DNA of 58,260 nt, filler included, from Porpidia crustulata (lineage: Eukaryota), in assembly GCA_964255105.1 (NCBI GenBank). It is 2 parts of 2 records of this genome, joined end to end, with 100 filler letters (N's around TTAATTAATTAA, not from the genome) between each part and the next. Parts side by side here need not be neighbours in the genome. Positions count along the whole stretch, not along the records: positions 1 to 29,270 come from CAXUWE010000027.1; 1 more part is not named here. One strand, given 5' to 3'. Both the position numbers and the translations under genes were made by a program. The notes under the pieces are model-generated. The model did no database searches and was not told the DNA's origin. It saw only the letters and a list, made by a program, of their open reading frames with translations. The first letter of the stretch is position 1. Each line of letters opens with the position of its first letter. Shown here piece after piece: positions 3,369-52,700 of the stretch.

Positions 3369-5561
3369 TCACATCACAACTGCCACATGATCATCCATGT
3401 ACTGATCAATGTTCCCCAAGAAACACGCCGCAATGATGCTGACCGCGCCAAACGCAATACTCGTCAGATAGACCCATTTGTAGCTCTCCGCAAAGGCAAT
3501 CTGACCCGCTCCAACCACCATGGCGTAGGCCGTCTCGTTGCCCTTAATGCCGGGGATGAGCTTGAGGTCTTCCAGGAGAGAAGCCCCCGTGAACGCGATG
3601 GCTTCGCCGATGTAAGTGGTGTTTTTGATGCCGAGCTTGAGTATCATGGTGCCGCCGATGAAATGTTTGGCATTAGGGACGAATTTGTTGATGAAGACGT
3701 TGTAGTAAGTGGTGTAGCCGATAGAGCCGCCAATGACTCGGATCGAGAGGGTGAGGGCCGCGACAGTAGCGATGAGATCCTATATCGACGGATTAATTAA
3801 TATAATCTTATAACGCGTATTACTCTGAAAAACCTACATCAGGACATATGATAGTTGTAATGATCGATGCAGGAACAACAATACCACCAATGCCGATACC
3901 TGCAAGTACAAGGAGGCCCCACACTTGATAGATATTGTCCACACGCGCAACGGCAAGGCCCCCGCATCCTAGAAGACAGTCAGTCTTGCTATCTCGCGTA
4001 TAGATAGAGCAGGAGATCAATAAATTACCTGCTGTCATTAGAATAGAAGATACGACCAGCAACTCTCTGTTATGACCTCTGAAAACACTCAGGAGCCAGA
4101 GAACTACAAAAGCACCCGCCAAGATGCTGAAGCCAATTGGCAAACCTCGTATTCCGACACCGACGGGGTCTTGACCGTAAACATTGAACGCCTGTGTGGG
4201 CCAGAAAAGTAAGACGGAGAAGAAATTGGCTCCAGAAATGAAGGTGATGATAAGGGTTAGGATGAAAATGCGAGGATTCTGCTTTAGTCGAGCGGGGAAC
4301 ATTGGAAACTTGGCGAATTTCCATTCCCAAATGAAAAAAGCGGCTATAAGGGCTACGCCGAGGAGCAAAGGGACCAGGACATGCGCGGATTTCCAAGGGT
4401 ACTGCGTCCGGGATTAGTAGCTTTAGAACGTTTTGTAGGGACGCACACACCTGGTAACCTCCCCATTGTAGCCCGGCCATGAAAAGGATCATTCCCGAGA
4501 TACTCAGGAAGCCTCCAACAAAATCAATCTGCTTGATTACTTCCATTTTGGTCATACCTAGAGAGTTTACTCTCGGCGGTGGGTGATAGAAGATCACGGT
4601 CATGGCAAGGCCCACGAAATTCCAGAGACCACACAACAAACCACAGTACCTCCAACCTGCAGACGAAGCAATAAGCTGACCCCATAATACCGATGGGCAG
4701 AAAGGGATGATGGTGAAGACCAGGATCGCAACGTATTTGCCGCGCTTCCGAGTAGGAGCTAGCTCGGACGTGACAGCCAACGCCGTGAGTTCTAGGATAC
4801 CAGCACCAATACCGGCTAAGGTCATGCCACCTGTTGTTCACTTAGTGGTGACTCCTCAGTTTGACCAGGTTGACTGACCGATGAACGAATTCATTACTTT
4901 TGCCGTCGAAGACACAATCATCCCCAGAACGACAAATACTGCACCCGTGATAGCCACCCAGCGGCGGCCCATGATGTCTGACATGGATCCGACGAATGGG
5001 CAAATTCCTGCAAGAGACAGAAGGTAGGCAAGGACCTTATCAAGGATGAGCACGTAAACGATACAGCGTGGGCTTTGTGACCCCATCTTACAAACCAGAT
5101 CCATCGGTCTGCTCCACCAATATCTCTGTAGATGTACGGAGGGATGCCACCTAGAAGCTCTCAGCTATGGCCACACGAAGCATGCTACGGCTTTGGCATA
5201 CCGAAGGTGTAGACAGGGATCTGTGAGCCAGTCCAGAGGAAAGCCATGGCGATCAAGGACATGATTCTCTTGAAGGACATCTGAATTATCCATTAGCTAC
5301 TCTTCTCTGCCGATGGTGCGAACAAAGTACCGGTGGCTCATGCTCGTGGTCTTCACCATCGACAAATGTGCCTGTAATGCGATTCTATCAGTAACTTGTC
5401 TTTTGTCTTGCCACAGAAGACTTACGCAGGCCATTCTTTTCGTAGTAGTTGTTATGCCCGGGCACCCGTTCATTTGTGTGTACGGTTTCTACATGAGCGC
5501 CCACCACGTCCTTCTCCAAGTCGGCTGGCGAATGCGCCGAGCCATCAGAACTGGTTTTCAT
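3369..5561 (-). CDS. MFS transporter, TRI12 / fungal trichothecene efflux pump-like family (multi-exon)
   Basis: Pieces read MKTSSDGS..HNNYYEKNGL, MSFKRIMSLIAMAFLWTGSQIP, GSMSDIMGRRW (MFS motif A), ELAPTRKRG, LTLSIRVIGGSIG and YKWVYLTSIAFG. Many hydrophobic helices separated by GT-AG introns. Confidence 0.88.
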
Positions 5562-6962: not shown

Positions 6963-10679
<3,717 letters not shown>

Positions 10680-10927
10680 TCACAAGCGGACGCGGATATT
10701 CTGTGTGCGGGTGAGAACGCGCCCACCGATACCAAGCTAACAATAGTAATTAGTAAGGTGACTTTCAACACGAGTTTAAGATTGTAGGAACCGCTGCCTG
10801 AACGTTTTGAGCCAAAATTCAAACATGACTGAGCTACCTTTACCGTAGTTAGCCAATTCTTATTTAAGCCAAGCTGTCTGAGAAATATGCGCTCGGAATC
10901 CTGCAGTCCGGAAATGGAAAATGTTGC

Positions 10928-10934
10928 AAAAAAA
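10928..10934 (-). terminator. RNA polymerase III terminator (T7) of the tRNA gene
   Basis: Run of 7 T on the minus strand beginning 4 nt after C73. Confidence 0.8.
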
Positions 10935-10973
10935 CATGGGCTGAACTGGGATTTGAACCCAGGACCTCTTACA

Positions 10974-10986
10974 TACAAGTAAAGTA
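10974..10986 (-). other. Canonical tRNA intron at position 37/38
   Basis: TACTTTACTTGTA lies one base 3' of the TGG anticodon; its removal restores a 7-nt loop. Confidence 0.85.
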
Positions 10987-10999
10987 CCCAAAGCAAGAA

Positions 11000-11062
11000 C
11001 TGCAAGTTGTTATTAGCCATTATGCAATTGGCAGACTTTCAAATGTTTGTGATGTAACTTAC
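11000..11062 (-). other. Spliceosomal-type intron inside the tRNA-Pro D-stem
   Basis: GTAAGT donor at 11062-11057, GCTAAT branch motif at 11017-11012 and TTGCAG acceptor ending at 11000. Length 63 nt, in the size class of the mRNA introns in this window. Confidence 0.8.
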
Positions 11063-11827
11063 TTCTGCCACTGAACTATCCAGCCAACTATTCCATAGAA
11101 TACCCAATATAATAGTATAAAATTTATTTTAAAATACCCATAGCCAAATAGATTGTACAGAAGTGCGCGAGGGTCGACAGTATTAGGTACCCGTACACAC
11201 CCATAGTTCGGATCCCAACCCTTGCCCAAAATGACCGAACTAGGGGTTTGACCTAACCAGGGGTGTATGATAGTAGGTAAAACAATAGATTTCCTACCTC
11301 AACGAGCCACGAGCTCGAAGCGGCTAGAACGATTCTTACCCAGTATTCGTGTAATGTTTCTCATCAATAATCCACAAGCCAATAATTCTCTTTAACCAAG
11401 AATCAGAGATTGTCCAAGAACCTGACTATCTTACCCTATAATTAAAGTAGATACGCTCATCAACAGTCTTCGACCGGAACGTGATCGATCACATTTTCTT
11501 CGTCGATATCCTCAACGCGAAGTAGTCCTCGACGGTGATCGCGAAAGCTGTCGGCAGAGAATGGCCTGCTTGAGGCGAAGGAGTCGTCAGAATCAAGCTG
11601 CATGAAGAGGGAATGATTGTTTGCATCGATAGAGAACCGGGTCTTCCAATGCCTGCTTTTTTGAAAAATTCAAAAGTGGTCTTCCCTATTGTGTCTCTGG
11701 ATTTTACGTGTAGCAGTGTTTATATTCCCGTGCACAGTAACAGTTTCATCATTCTTCGCGCAAAATAAGTACCTGTAAAGCTTTAAAATTTTGTGTATAT
11801 AGATGACGGTTGTCAAATCGCTTCCTT

Positions 11828-32588: not shown

Positions 32589-35531
32589 ATGCATCTTATT
32601 CCCAAAGAAGTACAGTCATTTTCAGTCGGTCCTTTATCTAAATAACAGCTAAGATAGCTTGTACAGGTCGACAAACTAGCCACTTCGCAGCTTGGAATTC
32701 TTGCCCAACGTCGTCTTGCGAGAGGTGTCAGGCTGAATCACGCAGAAGCCACCGTAGGTCCTTGTCCTGCCTGTATCCCCGAGGATGCCTAATGAGCGGA
32801 GTGAAAGGCATTAATAGCAAATAACCTGCAAGAAGTATGTCTTCAAAACGGACGTGGAAGAAGGACCTGCTGAACTAGGTCCTTAAGCTCATTCGCGATG
32901 GCAATCACTCTGTGTCAGACCTCATGTCTATTGGGAAGAGCATGCTTGGAAGACGCCATGTCCTTCCATCAGTAACCTCATCCTTGGCTGAGCTCATGGT
33001 TGAGGGCACGTTTCCGACTGGCACATACCTCGTGACCGTTCATCATCCAATTAGCTCCGATGACGGTGATTTGGAAAAGGCGTTATATGGCAGCTTCCTT
33101 CCTATACCGTCAGAGGACCTTTTTCCCATTCAGGATGCAGCACAATATGAAGCAAAGAATATGCCAGGCGCTGTAGTGCCAATCCAGGAAGATAAAATTG
33201 TGCTTCGCGATGGCAGGAAGAGAATGTGGCTCAAAGTCACTAGTAAGGGTGACCGACCGATACAGGTAGGCTCGCTGCATCTTTGTGCATTCAAAACTTT
33301 GAGACAACATACAGATCGGATCCCACTATCACTTGATTGAAGCAAACCCACAGTTGGACTTTGATCGGCTTCGTGCTTATGGCTACTTTCTAGACATAGC
33401 AGCAGGCACATCCATAAGGTTCGAGCCCGGGGATACCAAAACGGTTAGTCTTGTCGAGATCGGTGGACGTAAAATTATTGAAGGCGGCCATGGCATAGCC
33501 TCAGGCCGTGTCGATACGTCGCGTGCAGAAGAAATTCGAAGACGTTTACAGGAGGGAGGCTTTGCTCATACACCAGAACCAGCCGGCGACAGGGCTATCA
33601 CCAGGCCATTTTCCATGACTCGCCATGCTTACATAGGAATGTTTGGCCCTACCGTTGGCGATGCTGTACGATTGGGTTCAACAGATCTGTGGATCACGGT
33701 GGAAAAGGATTATACCATTTACGGAGATGAGTGCAAGTTCGGGGGCGGGAAGACCCTTCGAGAAGGAATGGGCCAGGCCAGTGGTCGCCCTGACGCCGAA
33801 GTGTTGGATACGGTGATAACAAACGCAATAATCGTGGATTGGAGTGGCATCTTTAAAGCAGACATTGGTATCAAAGATGGAATGATTGTTGGCATTGGTA
33901 AGGCAGGCAACCCTGATACCATGGATGGTGTCAGCCAAGCGATGGTTGTAGGCGCTTGTACAGATGTCATTGCAAGTGAGGGAAGCATCATCACCGCTGG
34001 CGGCCTCGACTCGCACATTCATCTCATTTGTCCACAACAAGCGTATGAGGCTATAGCGTCAGGCATTACAACAATGCTTGGCGGCGGTACTGGGCCAAGC
34101 ACAGGCACCAGTGCAACTACATGCACCCCCGGAAAGGTACATATGCGGCAAATGTTGCAGGCGTGCGATGAATTACCTCTCAACTTCGGCATCACAGGAA
34201 AGGGAAATGACAGTAGACCAATAGCATTACAAGAGCAATGTATCGCTGGTGCTGCTGGCCTGAAGCTGCACGAGGACTGGGGAACAACCCCATCAGCCAT
34301 TGATGCATGTCTAGATGTCTGTGACGAATACGATGTCCAGTGCCTTATCCACACGGATACTCTCAATGAATCCGGTTTTGTTGAGCAAACCATAGCTGCT
34401 TTCAAGAATCGCACTATTCACACCTACCACACCGAAGGTGCCGGAGGGGGCCATGCTCCAGATATTATCTCCGTCGTCGAACATAGCAATGTCCTCCCGA
34501 GCAGTACCAATCCAACCCGTCCATTTACTCTCAACACTCTGGACGAACACCTCGATATGCTGATGGTCTGTCACCACTTATCAAAAAAGATCCCCGAAGA
34601 CGTCGCCTTCGCTGAATCCCGCATTCGGGCTGAGACTATCGCAGCTGAAGACGTCCTGCATGATCTTGGCGCTATCAGTATGATGTCCTCAGATTCGCAG
34701 GCCATGGGTCGTTGTGGAGAAGTTATTCTTCGGACCTGGAACACCGCTCACAAGAACAAATTACAGCGAGGGACATTGAAAGAAGATGAGGGCAGCGGGG
34801 TCGATAATTATAGAGTAAAGAGATATATTAGTAAATACACCATTAATCCTGCAATCGCGCAAGGTATGAGTCACATACTTGGGAGTGTAGAGGTAGGAAA
34901 GCTGGCAGATCTGGTTATGTGGAATCCTGCTAGTTTTGGGACGAAGCCGGATATGGTTATCAAGAGTGGGATGATATCTTATGCACAGATGGTGGGTGTG
35001 CCTCCCAACACTGTGAGATGTACTCATAATAGTCAGGGCGACCCCAACGCCTCGATCCCTACTGTCGAGCCAATTATTATGCGTCCTATGTTCGCTGTAA
35101 GCTTTTCCCTTGTGCCTGTTGATCATCCAACATCCGGGTTGAACCACTATTGACTTACCTGCCCTTATAGGCCTTTGTGCCACAAACCTCTGTGACATTC
35201 GTCTCTCAGGCTTCTGTCGCCACTGGCACCATTAAGAGTTACAACCTACGGAAGAGGATCGAGGTAGTGAAGAATTGTAGGAATATCGGGAAGAAAGATA
35301 TGAAGTTTAACGATGTCATGCCGAAGATGAGGGTCGACCCTGAAAGCTACGTAAGTGCTCTCGTTCCATTCATGGGCAATTGGGTAGTCGGGGTTTTGCC
35401 AGGGAATCTACAGAGGAATCTGTACTGACCAAGACCTCTCGCATGACTAGGTCGTCGAGGCAGATGGGATGGTCTGTAAAGCAGAGCCAGCGACGGCACT
35501 ACCCTTGACCCAGGCACACTATGTCTTTTAG
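32589..35531 (+). CDS. URE1: Urease (single-chain eukaryotic type, multi-exon)
   Basis: [65 protein letters not shown] and SDSQAMGR motifs; ends PLTQAHYVF*. Confidence 0.97.
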
Positions 35532-49716: not shown

Positions 49717-52700
49717 ATGTGAGCTTCCCCTTAGTACTTGATGTCTCCGGCGTAGCGAGTTAACATTTACACAGGTGTGAGTACCCTATTTAACGAGTTG
49801 CAAATTTGTAGGCGTCTTAGCTAAACGTACCGAAGCCAAAATCGACAAACTCCAGATAAGAGGGTAGCGTTCTCTCGGTCGCAAGATCTATTTCTACGTA
49901 GCTAATATCATCCAGCATTCGGTCATTCGACGTCAATGATCCCGAGACCATACAATTCCACACTCCTTTGACGCTCATAGTAGGAATGAATGGCTCTGGG
50001 AAGACAGCAAGTCTAACGAGATGTCCAACAAGCTTTTCGATTCAGACTAACGAGCCTTAGACGATCATCGAGTGCCTCAAGTATGCTACCACTGGAGAAC
50101 TGCCCCCAAATAGCAAAGGAGGTGCTTTCATCCATGACCCGAAAGTACGAACATTACCATAACGTACCATGATATGCTGATGGCTCTCGCAGTTATGTGG
50201 CGAGAAGGAGGTCATGGCACAAGTAAAATTATCTTTCAGAGGCATGAATGGAGCTAGAATAGTTGCGACACGGAGCCTGCTACTCACCGTGAAAAAAACC
50301 ACAAGGACTCAAAAAACACTCGAAGGTCAATTACACATGAGTAAGGATGGAGAGAGAACAGCTAAATCAGCTCGAGTTGCTCAACTGGATCAACTTATAC
50401 CGCAATACCTTGGCGTTTCAACTGCTATACTAGACTCGGTCATCTTCTGTCACCAAGATGACAGCTTATGGCCCATGAGTGAACCTGGAGTTCTCAAAAA
50501 GAAGTTTGATGAAATATTTGAAGCTCTGAAGTACACGAGAGCCATCGCTAATATCAAAGATATGGTAAAGAAGCAAAAGGGCGATCTTGCACTTTACAAA
50601 GAAAGAGAGGGTCACACTAAGGAAACCAAAAACAGAGCCGAACGTGTGAGTTGCTAAGTCTGGATTTCAACATTTTTTCTGACCATAGAATAGGCAGAAA
50701 AAAGGTCTCAAGAACTCTCCCGCGATATCGAGCAGCTTCGAGGGGAAACTCAAGCTCTCAACATGGAATATAAAGAAGCGACTGCGAAGGCTATCGAGTC
50801 CTGGGAGAAGGGGAAAAAGTATGAGCATGTGGTACAATCGCTTGAGCTGAATCGGAAGAAGCAAAGCTGGCTGGAAGGCACTCTAAAAAAACAGAGCCAG
50901 AATCTTCAGAAACGCACCGAAACGGACGACTGGCTGCAGACAGAGATTGACCAGTATGAACAACGTATGGCCGTTCGTGAAGAGCATAAGCAAAGGCAAA
51001 CGAAAAACTATGAAGCTCTTAGACAAGAGATTGAGCAAGTTCGAACAGCGTTACGCAACAAACACACAGAAGTGGGCAGATATGAAGAGCAAAAGGCTGC
51101 TCATGAAAAGCAGGTGGAAAGCCGGAAAGGTTTGATTAGAGACACTGCTCGGCGTCACCATATTCATGGGTTCGAGACGGATCTGGACGATATGCACATT
51201 TCAGAATACATGGTGAAGATTTCAAAGCTTCTCAAAGATCAGAACGCTTCGGTCGATCGAGTCCGCCAAGAGACTGAAAGAGAAATGCAAAAAGTACAAG
51301 ACGTCCTTAGTGAGCTTGGCGAACGGAAATCCGTACTGAATGAGGGCAAGAACTTTGCAAGGCAGCAATCAGCAGCGAATGACAAGAAAATAGCATACTA
51401 TCACTCTGAGCTTACTACCATCGAGGTAGATGAGGGACACATAGCCTTGATGGAAGCTAACGTTGAGGATTTGGATAGCCGACTCCAATCGTCCACGACG
51501 GAGTTCAAGGCTAGCTCCTGGGATAGTAAGGTAGAGGATGGTAATGTGAAGCTACGTTCATTGGAGGACGACGTTGAACGACTAAATAAAGACTTGATTC
51601 AAGGGACGCGGCAAGCTGGTGACCTCGCTAGATTAGATCATCTCAAGAAGGATCTCAAAGATCGCAAGCGTGGCCTTGATACAATGGTCGGCGCCCATGG
51701 CGACAGGCTATCGAGAACTGTGGGATCGTCCTGGAAACCTTCTAGCCTCGAAACTGAATTCAAAAAAATTGTCGACTTGGAGACGCGCAGATTGAAGGAG
51801 GCAGAACGAGAAAGGGAGGGAGGATCTCGAGAACTTGAGCAACTTGAATTCAAACTTAACAGCAGTCGAGCAGAGCTGAAAAAGAGCGAGAACGAGCTGA
51901 ATGCTTGCGTGCAGCACATCAAAACAAGTACTCAGGGCCAACCCGAAGACTATATTAAAGACCTCCAAGGGATGCAAAAGGATCGCGATATTGTCAAGGC
52001 CGACGCTGACAATTCTTCCTTCTTAAAAGAGTGGTATAAGGAGAGTCTGAAGATTGCTGGAAGTAAGGAGATTTGCCGGTTGTGTACAAGGTCTTTTCGT
52101 GGAGAACAGGAACGACAAGCTTTTACCGTTAGGATAGAGAAACTCATTGATCGAGATCAAGAAGGTTTGCTGAAGGAGTTGAAAGACATTGAAGAAGATA
52201 TACAACGGGGAAAAGACGCAGCCCACAGCTTTGAATCATGGGTACGTTTAACAAATAAGGAGCTACCAAGATTACAGGCGGATGTCAAGCAACTGGATGA
52301 AGGCCGAGAGAAACTGCTCCGACGCATGGAAGAGCATGACCGCAGAGTCAGTGATCAAGAGGAAGTCAGAAGAGATGCAGAGACACTTAGCAAACCAGTC
52401 GCAAATATACTCAAGTATAGCCAAGAAATCTCTGAATTTGACCGGCAAATTCAGGAAATATCGTCAAAGCGACATGACACTAGCTTATCTTGTACGCTCG
52501 AGGACATTCAACAGAAACTCGAGATTCTTGGGGCCAAGACTCGGGATTCGAGGGCTAGCATAAACAAGCTTATAACGGATAAAGAACGAGCGAGATCCTT
52601 TTTGAGCACTTTGGAATTGGACTTGAGTAAGGCAAAGAACAACCTCACCACGGCTAATTACCAGCTTGAGAAGAAAGCCAATGTCTTCAGGCAGATCGAA

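Follow-up and report, generated by a model that had tools for sequence, protein, structure and literature searches.

A probable mRNA-type intron in the D-arm of a fungal tRNA-Pro(UGG) gene

A stretch of 58,260 nucleotides (nt) from the genome of Porpidia crustulata (assembly GCA_964255105.1), referred to here in its entirety as the window, carries on its minus strand a proline transfer RNA (tRNA) gene with the anticodon TGG, which is interrupted twice: by an ordinary short intron in the anticodon loop and by a longer insert in the D-arm. We consider it likely that the D-arm insert is a selected intron of the messenger RNA (mRNA) type (U2-type GT-AG) in a working nuclear tRNA-Pro(UGG) gene, and that it is removed by the spliceosome. 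The insert is precisely present or absent among orthologous loci, the exons around it are invariant, and its spliceosomal signals are kept in 16 introns that have otherwise diverged.

Anatomy of the doubly interrupted gene

The gene spans 10938..11085 on the minus strand, 148 nt with its two intervening sequences and 72 nt as a mature body, as delimited by the Rfam tRNA model (RF00005) and by ARAGORN after in-silico deletion of the insert. Exon 1 (11063..11085, 23 nt) contains the 5' strand of the acceptor stem, the 5' strand of the D-stem, the D-loop and the residues G22, A23 and A24, and includes at 11078..11068 what we take, from the consensus, to be the A box. The D-arm insert (11000..11062, 63 nt) splits the 3' strand of the D-stem at tRNA position 24/25 and reads GTAAGT...GCTAAT...TTGCAG, with the branch-site motif CTAAT at 11012..11016; its branch A, at 11013, precedes the 3' splice site by 13 nt. 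Exon 2 (10987..10999, 13 nt) covers positions 25-37, comprising U25 as the last base of the D-stem, N26, the 5' strand of the anticodon stem, the anticodon TGG and G37. The canonical tRNA intron (10974..10986, 13 nt) follows at 37/38, as placed by ARAGORN with an ambiguity of one T. Exon 3 (10938..10973, 36 nt) supplies positions 38-73, with the 3' strand of the anticodon stem, the variable loop, the T-arm, the 3' strand of the acceptor stem and C73, and its sequence contains the B box at 10959..10949. A T7 run of the type that terminates RNA polymerase III (Pol III) lies at 10928..10934, after ATG and three bases past C73. Upstream, an AT-rich, TATA-like stretch is located at 11106..11120, 21-35 nt from the mature 5' end; similar stretches were seen upstream of related genes, and it may have a TATA-like role.

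Removal of 11062..11000 joins GCAGAA to TTCTTG and completes the D-stem with the pair G10-U25. The initial annotation had read from this strand a Pro(TGG) gene with a D-arm GT..AG insert and a 13-nt intron at 37/38, and the minus strand agreed with it in every detail, including the branch A at 11013. Its statements that the insert contains no T-run able to stop Pol III and that it has the length of an mRNA intron also held. The longest T-run in the window insert is 3 at most, and 63 nt is unremarkable beside the plausible mRNA introns of the window, which measure 48-58 nt (e.g. 9252..9203, 4450..4402, 3837..3780 and 50646..50693), with others of up to about 74 nt; this comparison shows only that the insert is of ordinary intron size for the genome.

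The intact gene at 10938-11085 (minus strand) reached only 32.5 bits with the Rfam tRNA model, whose gathering score is 29, and 78 nt stayed outside the alignment. ARAGORN made no tRNA call on the window as it stands and, when anticodon-loop introns were allowed, returned an implausible Gln(ttg), whose intron would measure 62 nt and whose extra arm would be long. The deletion of 11062..11000, which had been proposed as a check, recovered the expected cloverleaf, ARAGORN now returning tRNA-Pro(tgg) of 72 bases with a 13-nt intron. As a chance control, each GTNNGY..YAG candidate of 38-133 nt on both strands of the window was deleted singly before the tRNA scan. Only one of the 1,948 deletions yielded a same-strand tRNA call across the junction, and it was that of 11062..11000.

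Related loci and conservation of the splice signals

Relatives were collected by searching metagenome contigs for exact matches to the 29 nt at the 3' end of the gene (within exon 3). The matching contigs, the longest of 2.47 Mb, gave 37 loci, of which 24 are interrupted in the D-arm, 11 are intact and uninterrupted, and 2 are defective. The insert occupies the same site as in the window (GCAGAA/TTCTTGC) in 23 of the 24 interrupted loci. In L035 (601-728, minus strand) it lies one base further 3', at 25/26 (GCAGAAT/GT...AG/TCTTGC), where the GT-AG reading is the only one that restores a 72-nt tRNA; either the intron has slid by one base, or it was gained separately at almost the same position. 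With the window included, the interrupted genes contain 16 distinct inserts of 45-63 nt. The 37/38 intron of the relatives is variable in sequence and 9-21 nt long, and T-runs are found 3' of the gene in these loci too. Of the two defective copies, L002 is without the 5' strand of the acceptor stem and matches positions 7-64 of the Rfam model at 35.9 bits, and L036, from which five bases around the anticodon are missing, still scores 49.5 bits in Rfam.

Presence and absence of the insert can be compared at the window's own locus. Conserved non-coding blocks, identified in alignments at 10690..10915 on the minus strand between the tRNA gene and the ATG of SMC5 (10634..10632), are common to the window and the interrupted loci L034, L003, L008, L014 and L032 as well as to the uninterrupted loci L006 and L029. 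L006 and L029 agree with the interrupted genes in every exon base and carry a 13-nt intron at 37/38, but in both of them GCAGAA runs straight into TTCTTG. The insert is thus exactly absent, the pattern expected of a true intron, and the two genes offer a natural stand-in for the spliced product. The 9 other intact genes likewise read GCAGAA directly followed by TTCTTG. Orthology of the locus rests on the non-coding blocks; a tblastn search of the loci with the SMC5 N-terminus and with the upstream ankyrin open reading frame (ORF) gave no hits. The blocks are better kept than the upstream flank or either intron (window versus L034, 0.92 identity versus 0.69 upstream). A structured RNA at this place was considered and rejected, as the RNAalifold consensus reached only -6.8 kcal/mol and Rfam matched nothing but the tRNA in 10700-11300; the weak fold points to a promoter or leader of SMC5, which the blocks probably are, rather than to an RNA gene.

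When the inserts were removed, ARAGORN called a tRNA across the junction in all 25 genes (the window and the 24 interrupted loci) and typed 21 of them as Pro(tgg). The remaining four calls (L013 and L026, Ile; L031, Ala; L034, Ser) differ because ARAGORN sets the 37/38 intron elsewhere, and three uninterrupted genes behave alike. A single long anticodon-loop intron, as ARAGORN reads the intact sequences, was rejected as inconsistent: identical exons were typed as Gln, Lys, Pro(ggg), Glu, Cys, Gly and Pro(tgg), with only 8 of the 25 genes called Pro(tgg). Among 20 loci submitted to Rfam, the 6 uninterrupted ones scored 51.6-54.0 bits (51.6 for L006) and 9 of the 12 interrupted ones 29.9-31.4 bits, while L004, L013 and L035 were unlisted at E <= 0.1. 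Standard finders had been predicted to miss or mis-score the gene, and so they did, with ARAGORN blank or mistyped and Rfam scores low for interrupted loci, indicating that the affected fungi probably have more tRNA genes than their gene sets show.

The conserved positions of the insert coincide with the signals of an mRNA intron. Across the 16 distinct inserts, G at +1, T at +2, A at +4 and G at +5 are each found in 16, T at +6 is found in 14, and the 3' end shows C (10 inserts) or T (6 inserts) at -3 followed by A at -2 and G at -1 in all 16; every other position is variable. The donor thus agrees with the extended GTRAGT-like consensus of U2-type introns. The initial annotation had named the lack of GT, branch and AG signals at orthologous loci as a reason to give up its claim; the outcome favours the claim, since of the 37 loci 24 are interrupted, and GT.AG and YAG are present in 16 of 16 distinct inserts. 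The branch-site consensus of fungi is CTRAY or YTRAY, and 14 of the 16 inserts have a YTRAY whose A stands 10-13 nt before their 3' end. The shifted insert of L035 has a strong branch motif, GCTAAC. Insert interiors are saturated with change and no more alike than shuffled sequence, with a mean identity between the six insert families of 0.552 (15 pairs) versus 0.538 +/- 0.055 for shuffled interiors (750 shuffles). Invariant signals in saturated inserts suggest that selection has kept only the three signals read by the spliceosome, at the boundaries that the tRNA fold demands.

All exon columns are invariant in the alignment of the 16 distinct genes, where 43 of the 72 bases are free of the search pattern and 29 are fixed by it, and the sole exon difference in all 24 interrupted loci is an extra A in the D-loop of L028. 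Between the window and L034, identity is 0.69 in the upstream flank, 1.00 in the exons, 0.63 in the D-arm insert, 0.79 in the 37/38 intron and 0.92 in the downstream flank. Among the window, L034 and L003/L008 the exons are at 1.00 and the insert at 0.59-0.69; all compared pairs show 1.00 for exons, 0.59-0.94 for the insert and 0.62-0.96 for the flanks.

The interrupted genes might be dead copies, each a redundant Pro(TGG) gene in which foreign DNA or a stray intron sits unspliced. This is highly improbable, because the exons stay invariant where identity drops to 0.65-0.69 in the flanks and to 0.59-0.69 in the insert. Insertions in the D- or T-arm of eukaryotic tRNA genes are usually deemed likely pseudogenes, apart from those of nucleomorphs and Cyanidioschyzon merolae (PMC4090602). 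Uninterrupted copies make up 11 of the 37 loci, and the degenerate copies L002 and L036 exist. Against decay, the splice signals are kept in 16 of 16 inserts across saturated interiors, and the genes still have their T-run terminators and their A and B boxes; if intron-less copies converted the interrupted ones, the insert would be expected to disappear, not to keep its boundaries.

A side observation concerns the rate of change. Within families (L003/L008, L009/L017, window/L034) the D-arm intron has often changed more than its flanks; in the close pair L003 and L008 its identity is 0.76 versus 0.91 and 0.94. Elevated transcription-linked mutation is reported around active tRNA genes, and the excess would fit it.

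Splicing pathway and transcript

Introns of eukaryotic tRNA genes sit at N37/N38, where the tRNA splicing endonuclease cuts them out and a ligase joins the halves; the spliceosome does not remove them (PMC10275265). The 13-nt intron at 10986..10974 is of this canonical 37/38 kind, and the 63-nt insert differs from it by its 24/25 position. Non-canonical tRNA introns are described for C. merolae and for the nucleomorphs of cryptophytes and chlorarachniophytes in PMC3728597 and PMC4090602. As in the gene studied here, the extra intron of those genes lies outside 37/38, D-arm included, and sometimes beside a canonical one; D-arm introns of this kind exist and are excised. The present insert might likewise be cut by the endonuclease, its likeness to an mRNA intron being incidental, although we regard this as very unlikely. 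The introns of C. merolae and the nucleomorphs are short (3-24 nt in the nucleomorph examples given in PMC4090602) and rely on bulge-helix-bulge-like motifs for cutting by the endonuclease, whereas the inserts here measure 45-63 nt, the motif is unconserved and the spliceosomal signals are conserved. A bulge-helix-bulge of two 3-nt bulges flanking a helix of 4 base pairs (bp), the geometry given in the same source, was found in none of the 16 genes. A 4-bp central helix, in which the four exon bases before the junction pair with the four before the last two of the intron, forms in the window and in L009, L017 and L030 of family C, but is missing in the other 12 genes, and outer, central and inner helices occur together in 0 of 16. 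RNAalifold predicts no pairing within the insert, and no insert stands at the N37/N38 position of eukaryotic endonuclease introns (24/25, or 25/26 in L035). The motifs GT.AGT, YTRAY and YAG are not needed by the endonuclease, yet they are the sole conserved positions, and the shifted insert of L035 is still GT-AG. A self-splicing group I or group II intron was rejected, since inserts of 45-63 nt with no conserved pairing contrast with catalytic structures of hundreds of nt.

The flanks bear on the question of which transcript is spliced. By flank similarity, the interrupted genes and the window fall into five contexts with no detectable likeness between them: the window's own locus (window, L034, L003, L008, L014 and L032), family A (12 loci), family C (4 loci), family D (2 loci) and L035 alone. 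On a rival reading, the spliceosome would act only on a read-through transcript of RNA polymerase II (Pol II), either a long 5' leader of SMC5 or a non-coding host RNA, with the tRNA released from it or with the Pol III product useless. SMC5 does share the strand of the tRNA gene, its ATG being 303 nt downstream of the tRNA, the AT-rich TATA-like stretch precedes the tRNA gene, and spliceosome recruitment is normally coupled to Pol II. An intron of an overlapping Pol II transcript is nevertheless unlikely, because the insert accompanies the tRNA gene, at one and the same site within it, in five mutually dissimilar flank contexts. A T7 or other T-run lies directly 3' of the gene, and the conserved blocks that are likely the SMC5 promoter or leader lie downstream of it. 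The longest T-run in any of the 16 inserts is 4 or less, so that Pol III could read through; this last point is weak. In a noisy set of 83 crude mRNA intron candidates from the window, each with at least 70 open codons on either side, T-runs of at least 5 occur in only 3, and their absence from the tRNA inserts is therefore not discriminating. As a variant, the tRNA precursor itself may be made by Pol II.

Under the preferred reading of an mRNA-type intron removed from the tRNA precursor, transcription would run from the A and B boxes, both intact, to the T7 run, and Pol III is the most likely polymerase, given the two boxes and the T-run terminators. TFIIIC would be expected to tolerate the longer spacing between A box and B box. 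The spliceosome would read GTAAGT, CTAAT and CAG, the 24/25 intron would leave as a lariat, and GCAGAA would be joined to TTCTTG. The tRNA splicing endonuclease and ligase would take out the 13-nt intron at 37/38, the spliceosomal step coming before or after this ordinary tRNA splicing, and end processing and CCA addition would come last. From the sequence we infer the spliceosomal removal with its lariat, the succession of the two excisions and the use of Pol III.

Several observations weigh against this reading. Only one public run contains the stretch; it is DNA-like and gave a single contig that matches the window exactly, with no paralogous or joined form. In our own judgement, a 23-nt 5' exon on an uncapped Pol III transcript would be an unusual substrate for the spliceosome. 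L013 and L026 carry CTTAC where YTRAY is expected, the donor of L035 (GTTAGG) is weak, that of L025 reads GTCAGC, and only T4 follows the family C genes. The 11 intact uninterrupted genes have the same exons, and some occur beside interrupted ones in the same assembly (JAABUK, JAABUO, JAABUZ), so that the interrupted copies might be dispensable in some genomes. Sampling may also be narrow: the interrupted loci come from 15 assembly prefixes, 14 of which are consecutive JAABU* prefixes, maybe of one project, and these 14 account for 23 of the 24 loci.

On balance we lean slightly towards the broader proposal that the supply of tRNA-Pro(UGG) depends on the spliceosome throughout a clade of fungi, with a Pol III precursor spliced twice, in the D-stem by the spliceosome and at 37/38 by the endonuclease. 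The intron would then be either ancient and selected or repeatedly gained at one hot spot through reverse splicing into an abundant tRNA, and the one-base shift in L035 hints at the repeated gain.

In Schizosaccharomyces pombe and in other fungi, the Pol III-transcribed gene for U6 small nuclear RNA is known to carry an mRNA-type intron (Tani and Ohshima 1989, 1991; Canzler et al. 2016; reviewed in PMC5855946), and the S. pombe gene is a precedent for the action of the spliceosome on a Pol III transcript. In both cases the intron is short, has a canonical 5' splice site, branch site and 3' splice site, is otherwise unconserved, is present or absent among relatives, and interrupts a gene for a small non-coding RNA whose Pol III promoter is internal. 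Unlike U6, the host here is a tRNA and no component of the spliceosome, and its transcript also needs the endonuclease pathway. As a tRNA is not at the catalytic centre of the spliceosome, the usual origin by reverse splicing does not obviously apply. Spliceosomal introns in ascomycete ribosomal DNA were reportedly described by Bhattacharya et al. in 2000. They resemble the present insert as GT-AG introns of a non-coding RNA gene outside the Pol II system and differ in that they sit in Pol I genes. The available part of PMC5855946 lists U6, U2, U5, U1 and ribosomal RNA as non-coding hosts of spliceosomal introns, with tRNA not among them, and no description of a spliceosomal intron in a tRNA gene was found in the full-text literature searched, whose coverage leaves out most subscription journals.

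The novelty would thus lie in the tRNA as host, an mRNA-type intron in a small non-coding RNA gene being already known. If the reading is correct, no other tRNA is so far known to depend on the spliceosome for its maturation; the dependence would couple translation capacity to splicing capacity, and spliceosomal splicing of a presumed Pol III transcript would have its second natural example. A conserved mRNA-type tRNA intron would constitute a new class of spliceosome substrate and would bear on intron gain in RNAs away from the catalytic centre of the spliceosome.

Neighbouring genes and other features of the window

The G+C content of the window is 44-51%, and its gene structure and short GT-AG introns are fungus-like. 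SMC5 is the next gene downstream on the same strand, and its N-terminal ATPase head matches solved SMC5 chains (E = 1.7e-19). An apparent first intron of SMC5 lies at 10168-10223 on the minus strand, a 56-nt GC-AG intron with the donor GCAAGC, a branch-like CTGAC and the acceptor TAG, whose removal would join ...GWSPQ to HLGRAKD... in frame. The upstream neighbour of the tRNA gene is an ankyrin-repeat ORF. Searches of four neighbouring ORFs against Pfam gave ankyrin repeats only, two of the four being without a match.

At 33755-34050 on the minus strand, Rfam reported 5_ureB_sRNA with 94.3 bits. This family is antisense to a bacterial urease gene, and the match most likely marks a conserved urease coding region and no small RNA.

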